NCBI RefSeq assembly: GCF_006345805.1
Contig: NW_021831863.1
Coordinates: 1-64,000 of the forward strand
Reading direction: 5' to 3'
Length of the DNA: 64,000 nucleotides
DNA from: Octopus sinensis
Lineage: Eukaryota
Both the position numbers and the translations under genes were made by a program. Below, piece after piece: positions 33,283 to 36,910 of this stretch. The notes under the pieces are model-generated. The model was not told the origin of the DNA. It saw only the letters and a list, made by a program, of their open reading frames with translations, and did no database searches. The number at the start of each line of letters is the position of its first letter. Within the stretch, counting starts at the first letter, position 1.

Positions 33283-36200
33283 ATTAGAGACAAAACCACT
33301 ATTTTGCAAAAACAACAAGGAAAGACTTAATCAATACATAAAATTTTAATAAATAGTCAAAAAAACCGCCACTACAATTGTTTCTTTCTTGATCGACAAT
33401 CTTCAGGTGGACTTCCAATCTAAAATATCAATATTTTAAAATATAAAAATAATAATTTTAAATAATTAAAGTATGAATGAAAAAATATAAATATATAATC
33501 CATATATAACCTATATATAATCCATATATAATCAATATATAAACAATATATAAACTAAAATAAACCTATCAACAATTAAATATAAAATATAAAATATAAA
33601 ATATAAAATATAAAACAAAACAAAAAAATAATAATAATATAATAATAAACTATATATACACCCATACACATATACCTAATTATATATAACCATATCTAAC
33701 TACATACACTAAATCACACCCCTATATATATATCCCTATACATACACATAAAAACGTCTAGGCAACTATAAATAAATAAAATAGCTAAATACTTCAACAC
33801 AATACTTATTCATACTCCCACACACACACACATACAACCCACATTCACGCTCTAGAAAACGGACATCACTTAAAATTATGAACGGAGAAATGGAATAAAT
33901 GGAATTAAAAATTATATTCACTTGGTAAAACGAACACTACTTAAAATTATGAATGAAACAATGCAATAAAACAACAGACATCGCAAATAGACACAAATAC
34001 TACGAATTCCTTAACAAACCTACATGATAAAACCAAAACTCATAAAAACATATAATGATAAAATCTCCCTTTACTAAACTCTATAACATACCTATATAGC
34101 AATCCCCCTAACCTAAACATCACACACAAATACACACACGTAAACCACACACCCACGACATATACAAATAACCCCCACCACTTACACATACCTATACATA
34201 CATATAAACCTCAACATATACTCCAAAAACCCACTCAACCCCACACAGACAAATAAACACAAAAATTATGAATGGATTCTTTTATAAAACTACCATGATA
34301 AGCTAAAACTCACAAAACATAAATGATAAAACCTCCCTTTACTAAACACTATAACATACTTATATAGCAATCCCTTTAACCTATACATTCACACACAAAT
34401 ACACACACGTAAACCACACACCCATAACAAATACAAACACCCACCCCACTCACACACACCCACAAGTACATATAAGCCTCAACATATACACCAAACAAAA
34501 TTACTTTACCAAGGAAACTAAACATATGTATAAAAAGTATAACCGCTCTGGAAACGAACATCTTTTAAAATAATGAATGGAGAAATGGAATAAATGGAAT
34601 TAAAAATAATATTCACGTGGCAAAACGAACACCACTCAAAAATTATGAATGAAACAATGTAATAAAACAACCAACATCGAAAATAGACAAATTACCACGA
34701 ATTCCCTAAAAAAAACCATGATAAACCAAAACTCTTAAAAACATATAACGATAAAATCTCCCTTTGCTAAACTCTATAACAATCCCCCTAACCTAAACAT
34801 TCACACACAAAAAACACACACGTAAACCACAGACCCACGACTTATACACATACCTATACTAACTTATAAACCTCAATATACACCAAAAACCCACTCCCTC
34901 CCCACACAGACAAATTAACACATACATCCCAAAACCTAAATAACAAACCCATATACACATTCACACACAAACACACACACACGCAAAACACACACACACA
35001 ACAGATACATATACTCCCTCACATATACGCATATACATACTCACTAAACTCGATATATACAACAATATTTACACACCCACACTCATACAGATAAATAAAT
35101 TATACAACTAAAAACTCACACACAATCTCATATACATAAACACTCCAATAAAAAACAACATTAAATACATCGTAATAACCAGAATATCAAAAATAACAAT
35201 ATGACATAAGGAGAAATAAAATACATACTTACAAGTCAGTTTCAAATTATGAAGTGAAATTAAATTCTTAGCCGTTAAAAAAACAAACAAAAAATTACGT
35301 TACCATAGAAATATAACTTATGTAAAAAAGAATACGCGCCATGGAAAGTAAACGTCATTTAAAATTATGAATGGAGAAATAGAATAAATGGAACTAAAAA
35401 CTATATCCACGTGGCAAACCAACACTACTTAAAAAAAATTTATTATGAATGGATTCTTTAATAAAACTACCATAATAAATTATTATATACAATTATGAGC
35501 TTTAGCTCATCTTAGCAGCTCTAACAAACAACTTGCAGTAACCCAAATCTATTCTCGATGCCTGCCTTACTACTACACTATCCATTCCCATTCCAAGCAA
35601 CGCTAGCCCACCACCCGGTTACAATTCCCAACTCCACCCATTCATTCACAATTTCAACGACGTTCAACTCCACAGCGCTACATATAAGCCTCAACATATA
35701 CACCGGAGATTCACTTTCAATCCGTGCGGATGGGTGAGAGTATACATTGAGTGTAGTGATGGGGCTCCCATTACTATACACATTTGTACCTGTGTGGTAG
35801 TCTCCATGTGTATATTCACGCACGGGTATAAATGCAGGGGGTACACGCGCACGGCGTGTACGTGTACCCCCTCACATGTGCATATGCATGCTAGTTGGGC
35901 TCGATATGTGCAACAATGTAATCGCGCCCGCATACATGCATATGGGCGAGTTGCACAATCAAAATACGCACACGTGTATATGTGCGTTCACTGGTTGTGC
36001 AATTCACCCATCTGGGTGTGAGTGGGTGTAAGCGTATTGCTGTGGATGTCGAGCTTGATACGTATGTATATGAGTGTGTATTGGGGGGTTGTACGTATTT
36101 ATTGTGTGCATGTGCTTCACGCACGTGCGTCCATGTATGGATGAATATATTGGGATTGCTATGTGGGTGTAAATTGGGTATAGAGGGGGCTGTAAATTGG

Positions 36201-36910
36201 GTATAGAGGGGGGAGTTTTGTCATTGTATGGGTGTAGGTTTCATTTGTGATGGTGGTTTGTTGGTGATTTTTAATATGTTCTGTATATTTGGGTTAGTTA
36301 TGTATTATTCTAGTGTGTATAATTGTATACATATGATTGGTGTGAGTGGATTACGCCCATTTTTGGGGATGTATGTGTTTATTTGTCCGTATAGGGCGGG
36401 AGTGGCCGTTTGGTGTATATGTTGAGGCTCACATGCAATTCCAGGTACGCGCGAATGAAGTGGGCACTTATATTTGTTATGGGTGTGTATACTTTATATA
36501 ACAGACAATACCCAAATAAAATCTGTCAATTCAACAACCAAATAAAAAACAAAAAACAAAGGGATCGTAAACATTCACACATACATACAAAACTCAATAA
36601 AAACACCACTAAATAACACCCATCAACATATAAATATATCCTCCAAAATACATATAACAAATGCATAATAAAAATACATAATAAAATAAAATAAAAAAAA
36701 AATAAAAAAAATAATAATAATAAATAAAAAAATAAAAAAATAAAAAAATATATAAATAAAGAAAATAAAAAAATCTAATATAAATTATTAAAGTTTTAAC
36801 ATACCATAAACTGTTATATTAATACACATTAAAAATGAACTAATTAAAACAAAGAAATATCAATAAAGACTAACTATAATTAAAGCCTAGACTACATAGT
36901 TGTGTGGTAT
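33283..36910 (-). mobile_element. Large non-coding Penelope-like insertion in (TA)n with internal degenerate repeats and an inverted block
   Basis: Terminus gtggttttgtctctaat shared with 38422-38438; hammerhead motif near that end; block aaattatgaatggagaaat...aatggaa recurs at ~33870, 34570, 35360. Confidence 0.55.
33369..33410 (-). ncRNA. Minimal type I hammerhead motif
   Basis: ccac-CUGAAGA-(weak stem II)-GAAA-caauug-UA-gugg; palindromic stem III. Confidence 0.65.

Follow-up and report, generated by a model that had tools for sequence, protein, structure and literature searches.

A-to-I editing is usually regarded as a change of RNA that is not inherited, and reverse transcriptase (RT) is known to read inosine as G. 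Two avian retroviruses, RAV-1 (Felder 1994) and avian leukosis virus (Hajjar and Linial 1995), have been reported as A-to-G hypermutants of the ADAR type (PMC12925331, PMC8586724). Fossils of APOBEC activity, in the form of G-to-A changes, are described from LTR retrotransposons of vertebrates, for which 19 invertebrate genomes served as a negative control (PMC4866542). Among hyper-edited metazoan transcriptomes, the signal is strongest in octopus (PMC5625713), and clusters of A-to-G changes in DNA traces have been used as a comparison class (PMC2873906). A search of the open-licence literature found no report of ADAR edits fixed in a retrotransposon family.

The stretch of DNA analyzed here, referred to as the window, comprises 64,000 nt of an Octopus sinensis contig (NW_021831863.1). 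It contains a repeat array in which one copy had been noted for dense A-to-G differences, and the original prediction was that an edited transcript had been reverse transcribed and fixed. Our results agree with that prediction in the direction of change, its confinement to a duplex, its strand specificity, and its 5' bias. They make it very probable that the RNA of a retrotransposon was hyper-edited, by ADAR as judged from the pattern of change, and was then reverse transcribed, fixed, and amplified, and that this happened at least twice.

The excess was noted between two units at 35006-35107 and 35859-35958, for which about 22 A-to-G differences in about 100 nt had been counted by hand. A pairwise alignment gives 67 identical columns of 100; of the 33 mismatches, 22 are A>G and none is G>A, while 3 are T>C, 2 are C>T, and 6 are transversions. 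The same polarity had been seen to continue upstream, with some C-to-T, and in the inverted arm; the longer alignment of 34862-35121 with 35680-35973 counts 56 A>G and 18 C>T differences but 4 T>C and no G>A, and the partner arm at 35979..36310 has plus-strand A>G at 29 of 69 adenosines. Relative to the state common to sister subfamilies that lack a fold-back, the plus strand of 35683-36310 displays A>G at 92/201, C>T at 13/93, T>C at 19/201, and G>A at 12/83. Unit copies are present in both direct and inverted orientations, as had been described, and base composition varies along the stretch: the left side is G-poor (mostly 0-16% G), 35700-36000 is balanced, and 36000-36500 is C-poor.

All 22 of the G's were found at 17 of 19 other loci, and the remaining two loci have 20 and 21 of them. 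The A>G excess is real, but the copy is not a deviant one, as the G state is family-wide. For the interval 35689..36280, all 40 scored of 457 genome candidates match at 93-100%, and the group of copies of the window type is numerous; the edited subfamily has at least 40 copies and probably hundreds. Same-type mismatch clusters can be sequencing errors (PMC2873906), and the region is palindromic, but the G's recur at 19 other loci, and contigs from four of four public runs, belonging to four studies, cover the stretch in 29-30 of 30 bins, which excludes an assembly artifact; among the listed runs that contain it, none is recorded as RNA. A sequencing or assembly artifact as the source of the pattern is thus already refuted, its probability being negligible.

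The changes lie within a retrotransposon, of which the following parts are found in the window.

33228..33275, no strand: (TA)n tract, the insertion target at the 3' end of the element (matches end at 33276 in most aligned copies)
33276..36898, minus strand: 5'-truncated copy of a Penelope-like retrotransposon, with only the 3' UTR and terminal repeat (from alignment to other loci)
33369..33410, minus strand: minimal hammerhead-like motif with the core CUGAAGA...GAAA (from pattern and inspection)

Positions 33276-36898 align as a single block to the matching loci, and the 3' end of the element, used as a query, yields 1468 genome candidates. Longer copies measure about 7 kb and have, just past 36898 on the minus strand, an open reading frame (ORF) for an RT with a C-terminal GIY-YIG domain. 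This ORF, the (TA)n end, and the motifs indicate that the minus strand is sense, as had been proposed from the hammerhead-like motif, and that the window holds only the 3' UTR. The motif at 33369-33410 was called by a core pattern that we take to be the characteristic one; the window copy is unlike L034 in stem II, and an Rfam search gave no match, including for this motif. The ORF carries YRDD and GIY-YIG-type motifs by eye, and its atlas neighbors at 0.95-0.97 carry RVT_1, GIY-YIG, and HTH_animal, although it has no Pfam match above the cut-off and no match in PDB. Inspection by eye of its motifs describes a single ORF in which the RT is followed by a C-terminal GIY-YIG domain without CCHH, with a CxCX5C linker and with CxxC and CxH; DKT is found, and R-x-x-WK is present in place of an exact RWK. 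At residues of about 300-400, P0001 has a long low-complexity insert of Asn/Lys, which separates the RT thumb from the nuclease linker. The 3' UTR is repetitive and 3.6 kb long, with a marked scarcity of C on the sense strand. Inverted 5' ends or tail-to-tail fold-backs are common among the copies.

Penelope-like elements of the Hydra clade are described as having a C-terminal GIY-YIG, DKT and WK motifs, CxCX5C, a (TA)n target, and a length generally of <3 kb (PMC8557442). The element resembles them in the C-terminal GIY-YIG, DKT, the CxCX5C linker, and CxxC and CxH near the C-terminus, as well as in the (TA)n target, a hammerhead-like motif near the 3' end, and inverted 5' ends. In contrast to that clade, it is about 7 kb long and has a 3.6-kb repetitive 3' UTR, and the passages describing the clade mention no editing scars (PMC8557442). 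Because of this difference, the length given for the clade being treated as a tendency, we name the element Hydra-like only; placed by motif description, the carrier appears to be a Hydra-like Penelope-like element. The Naiad clade was rejected because Naiads have an N-terminal nuclease (PMC8557442) and that of the element is C-terminal. A mitochondrial insertion, suggested by the G-poor skew, was also rejected, as there is no tRNA in 14 loci and the longer copies contain an RT ORF.

The direction of change had been left unresolved by the original prediction. A protein search with the ORF returned 150 scored matches of 72 to 100% identity, and the downstream DNA of 40 of these was examined. 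In close sisters without the 1-kb cassette (35479-36488) that includes the converted arms, the units are all direct and G-poor, and an inverted arm is missing; both hairpin arms of the window derive from one sister unit. The unit of the first comparison is of this kind.

34862..35121, plus strand: G-poor paralogous unit of the first comparison, near the ancestral unedited state (from alignment)

Scored over the columns that seven G-poor units have in common, changes in the mid arm are A>G at 63/127, C>T at 15/73, T>C at 3/50, and G>A at 0/5. Plus-strand A>G in the other arm is at 25/60 against the same seven-unit reference; the seven units themselves have 0-1 A>G per about 100-150 A. A midpoint-rooted tree was built on the ORF end with 32 of 38 rows, the other 6 lacking the region; it does not contain the six earliest copies. 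It places all 16 cassette-bearing rows in one clade (100/100) within the fold-back-free sisters, with ten window-type rows as a subclade (96/84), and gives no order between un-inverted and early inverted copies. Because the sister subfamilies without a fold-back are A-rich, and they branch outside the cassette clade, A is the ancestral state at the converted sites. Editing predates the whole subfamily and occurred in its ancestor, which is why the family majority is G-rich. A G-rich consensus, earlier regarded as evidence against editing, is thus literally what is found (17 of 19 loci), but it does not refute editing, since the sister subfamilies polarize the change. The opposite course, in which the G-rich state came first and cytidine deamination of the sense strand removed G from the G-poor copies, had been offered as an alternative and would accord with the G-rich family majority at these sites and with the scarcity of C in the sense strand of the UTR. 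However, the homologous unit is G-poor in the sisters without a fold-back, which are outgroups to the cassette clade, and a second block, block A (see below), rises from 0 to 24-43 G's with an inversion, so that, unless the root of the tree falls within that clade, we give this course hardly any credence.

The first burst of editing is located in the two arms of a hairpin.

35683..35978, plus strand: A-rich hairpin arm of the first burst, plus-strand A>G 63/132 (12/30 + 51/102)
35979..36310, plus strand: partner arm of the first burst, plus-strand A>G 29/69, with later minus-strand (sense) A>G 17/140
36311..36488, plus strand: outer section of the partner arm of the first burst, with plus-strand A>G 7/32 and later sense A>G 13/74 (1/74 in L109)
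36168..36212, plus strand: 23-bp tandem duplication of the window copy, present in 0 of 11 other aligned copies

The early copies have a hairpin of 2 x 310-440 nt with sense-strand A>G in both arms and almost nothing else; the early-looking copies have a longer inverted arm and a UTR that is 92-95% like that of sister L102. In one of them, L152, compared with L102, the 2 x 310-nt hairpin has sense-strand A>G at 117/216 adenosines (inverted arm, 78/140; direct arm, 39/76) and C>T at 1/88, and the other transitions total 2, whereas the non-duplex 3' part has A>G at 2/183. The A>G excess is significant against both C>T (P = 4e-22) and the non-duplex part (P = 5e-37). A comparison of arm with arm, made without an outgroup, has 84 mismatches, of which 79 are G.U when read on the sense strand and none is A.C. 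Six early copies have essentially one edit pattern in common, as would be expected if they came from one founder molecule, and one of them, L166, is contiguous with the end of the ORF. An intermediate with only part of the first burst was not seen among these six, and an unedited perfect fold-back had 0 matches in a search by exact pattern only. An APOBEC-edited retroelement, characterized by sense G>A clusters, was considered and rejected, as G>A is at 0/15 and 0/77 in the arms of L152.

Another alternative to editing, G-U-tolerant drift, also dates from the original prediction and supposes that a hairpin RNA under selection slowly turns A-U or G-C pairs into G-U. The core hairpin does still fold on its original sense strand with 76 G-U pairs (-298 kcal/mol, versus -126 kcal/mol for the other strand), and later lineages gain C>T, which at 14% in the window-type lineage indicates that later drift is mixed in. 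However, under such drift C>U should accompany A>G, and in the first burst it does not (1/88 in L152, against 117/216 for A>G), even though young copies show sense C>T about four times as often as sense A>G (11.3 versus 2.6 per 1000). Nor does it predict a 5' neighbor bias, and none of the six early copies is partly converted. Drift as the main cause is consequently very unlikely. Within the window-type group, five copies (L066, L076, L107, L113, and L115) form a subgroup in which 44 nt are deleted near the hairpin loop; in L066 and L107, the outer arm also contains a T-rich insertion. These changes erode the hairpin further.

The G's of the first burst lie on the plus strand of the window, although the minus strand is sense. 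This puzzle, already raised when the minus strand was proposed as sense, is explained by a later inversion of the cassette.

35479..36488, no strand: 1-kb cassette, inverted relative to L109, L122, and L123 (from alignment to relatives)

The cassette is found in opposite orientations in two groups of copies. In L109, L122, and L123, its G's lie on the element sense strand, with A>G at 59-60/102 in the mid arm and 34-35/69 in the partner arm and opposite-strand A>G at 0-2/140, whereas in the window copy the first-burst changes are on the antisense strand, as a later inversion would leave them. After the inversion, the core hairpin on the sense strand is weak (-141 kcal/mol in the window type, versus -298 kcal/mol in L152), and the whole region folds at -212 versus -319 kcal/mol on the two window strands. 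Over the same branches the ORF has changed little in its DNA, the window type being 1-2% away from un-inverted copies and 4% away from L102.

A second burst adjoins the interval first noted (35689..36280) and lies outside it, in a part of the UTR that was identified by collapsed-alphabet alignment as the inverted block A. It is listed here with repeats that could have paired with the inverted blocks.

35479..35682, minus strand: second burst, in block A inverted by the flip, sense A>G 37/86, T>C 0/54, C>T 5/24
33850..34260, minus strand: direct UTR repeat that may have paired with the inverted blocks, sense A>G 10/85, C>T 0/18
34545..34940, minus strand: direct UTR repeat, a possible pairing partner, sense A>G 11/82, C>T 0/19
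35150..35478, minus strand: direct spacer and block A beside the inversion junction, sense A>G 5/69, C>T 2/32

Block A has sense A>G at 0/87 in three of three un-inverted copies and at 24-43 of 83-89 in the inverted copies, where T>C is 0-1 and, in the early inverted copies, C>T is 0-1/24. These counts come from 64 rows representing 80 loci, several rows duplicating one place, and exclude L062, L106, L144, and L149, in which the block is absent. Among nine early inverted copies, 14 edited sites are in common and 59 are in the union. Polymorphic columns among the same nine are A/G in 56 of 62 cases for block A, versus 10 of 18 for the already edited arm, a comparison from which the "outer" block was excluded as misaligned. 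The patterns in block A thus differ between copies, as expected if different RNA molecules were edited separately or in successive rounds. When pooled, the candidate partner repeats have sense A>G at 26/236, versus 2/145 in non-duplex parts (P = 0.0002).

In hyper-edited metazoan RNA, G is depleted 5' of the edited site, and the 3' G preference is reduced in invertebrates (PMC5625713). The neighbor context, proposed as a check on the role of ADAR, proved ADAR-like here, with 5' U and A above C and G. In L152, the edited fraction is 66/102 after U, 30/49 after A, 15/45 after C, and 6/19 after G (P = 0.0006), with the depletion of 5' G by itself borderline (P = 0.052). For both bursts pooled, it is 124/209 after A or U and 31/96 after C or G (P = 1.4e-5), and 5' G is significantly depleted (8/33; P = 0.0015). 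The C>T control has no 5' neighbor bias (P = 1.0). The bias is weaker in the second burst alone (P = 0.019 in the window copy and P = 0.063 in L056), and no 3' neighbor preference was significant in L152 or in the pooled bursts, ancestral G being rare.

This context and the confinement to a duplex are as predicted for ADAR, the putative enzyme. The genome has 17 matches to the adenosine-deaminase domain PF02137, but this domain also covers ADAT and ADAD proteins, so these matches do not single out ADAR. With several deaminase-domain loci present, and with ADAR1, ADAR2, and ADAD inseparable by sequence, some other duplex-dependent process could have produced sense A>G, such as an ADAD/ADAT-like deaminase or misincorporation by RT in hairpins under skewed dNTP pools. 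We regard this as improbable. Both arms are about 50% converted, single-stranded parts are spared, 5' U/A is preferred, and we know of no RT error process that would produce A>G with such confinement to a duplex and such a 5' bias. Conversion of nearly 50% within an inverted repeat also matches the ADAR-type retroviral hypermutants, as they are described (PMC12925331).

The original prediction also called for a search for clustered transitions of a single type in other copies. In the young family, 119 alignments that represent 80 loci contained no private clusters of this kind beyond the subfamily differences, and no independent scar was established in 23 sister loci. In the distant loci L098 and L099, inverted repeats rich in G.U were rejected as (TA)n/(TG)n microsatellite effects. 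Tail-to-tail or fold-back insertions with long near-perfect inverted arms are numerous among young copies (L031, L040, L043, L048, L006, L010, L014, L015, and L019), none of which was seen to have a private A>G cluster, indicating that fold-backs mostly originate at insertion and do not go on to be copied again.

Several other features of the window appear separate from this element. Positions 37683-38267 contain a separate inverted repeat with 209-nt arms that are 91% complementary and a (TA)n core; 3 of its 12 arm mismatches are A/G, without strong bias, and it is an insertion, either MITE-like or a fold-back. Inspection by eye places a broken LINE-like element at 512-2989 (minus strand), with ORF pieces resembling the C-terminal part of an RT and a zinc-binding region at 512-2133 and a gag-like piece with a CCHC knuckle at 2147-2989, both on the minus strand. 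Likewise by eye, 7445-8056 (plus strand) is a mariner-like transposase fragment with an HTH and the start of the catalytic domain, and 61927-62565 (minus strand) resembles the C-terminal part of ORF2 of a CR1/L2-type LINE.

Under hyper-editing by ADAR, the reading that we prefer, the following course of events may be proposed. A fold-back would arise by the template switch that is usual for Penelope-like elements, and the RNA of the element would fold into a duplex, in which ADAR, if it is the enzyme, would deaminate about half of the hairpin adenosines. The RT of the element would then read inosine as G into germline DNA, with fixation through target-primed reverse transcription. The un-inverted form probably came first and the inverted form after it, with editing recurring over several rounds of retrotransposition. 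More speculatively, and only as part of the doubtful extension given below, the U/G-rich UTR may itself have been built from (UA)n repeats by older editing cycles. Six loci of distant subfamilies (L089, L090, L093, L094, L096, and L098) have a short UTR of mixed (TA)n/(TG)n at about 1050-1750 of the sense strand, with L098 being more TA-rich; such mixed UTRs are a lead toward an origin from edited (UA)n, and microsatellite slippage confounds them.

It appears that a retrotransposon subfamily was founded on the edits of one RNA molecule, and the inversion provides an internal control, in that A>G tracks the strand of the element RNA and the double-stranded block. If this is right, the subfamily is a dated DNA record of germline ADAR activity, hyper-edited retroelement RNA remains copyable, and there is a direct test of whether editing restricts or shields such elements. 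A more speculative extension, which we think rather doubtful, is that ADAR is a recurring germline mutagen of the retrotransposon and that the element profits from editing. If so, the fold-back would produce double-stranded RNA (dsRNA), editing would fill it with G-U pairs, and inversion would yield A-C mismatches on the sense RNA; surveillance of dsRNA would be defused, and the most edited subfamily would outgrow its sisters. The case also calls for caution, as a family consensus can hide scars and fixed G's in repeats can be mistaken for live editing.

The locus has likenesses to each of the systems described above. As in the avian retrovirus hypermutants, about 50% of the adenosines in an inverted repeat of an RNA copied by RT became G and were fixed in DNA; in contrast to them, an endogenous retrotransposon carries the change, which is found at many loci of the genome, founded an expanding subfamily, and recurred after an inversion. 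With the APOBEC fossils as described (PMC4866542), it has in common strand-biased clusters of a single type in genomic retroelement copies, polarized against relatives, but those are G>A and arise by deamination of cDNA, whereas the changes here are A>G, follow the RNA strand, and are limited to a duplex. The dense A>G clusters in dsRNA and the depletion of 5' G are also those of hyper-edited transcriptomes, in which the reported changes are in RNA only (PMC5625713), whereas here they are in the genome. What is new in comparison with these systems is a scar that founded an ORF-bearing, expanding subfamily, together with a second burst that followed an inversion.
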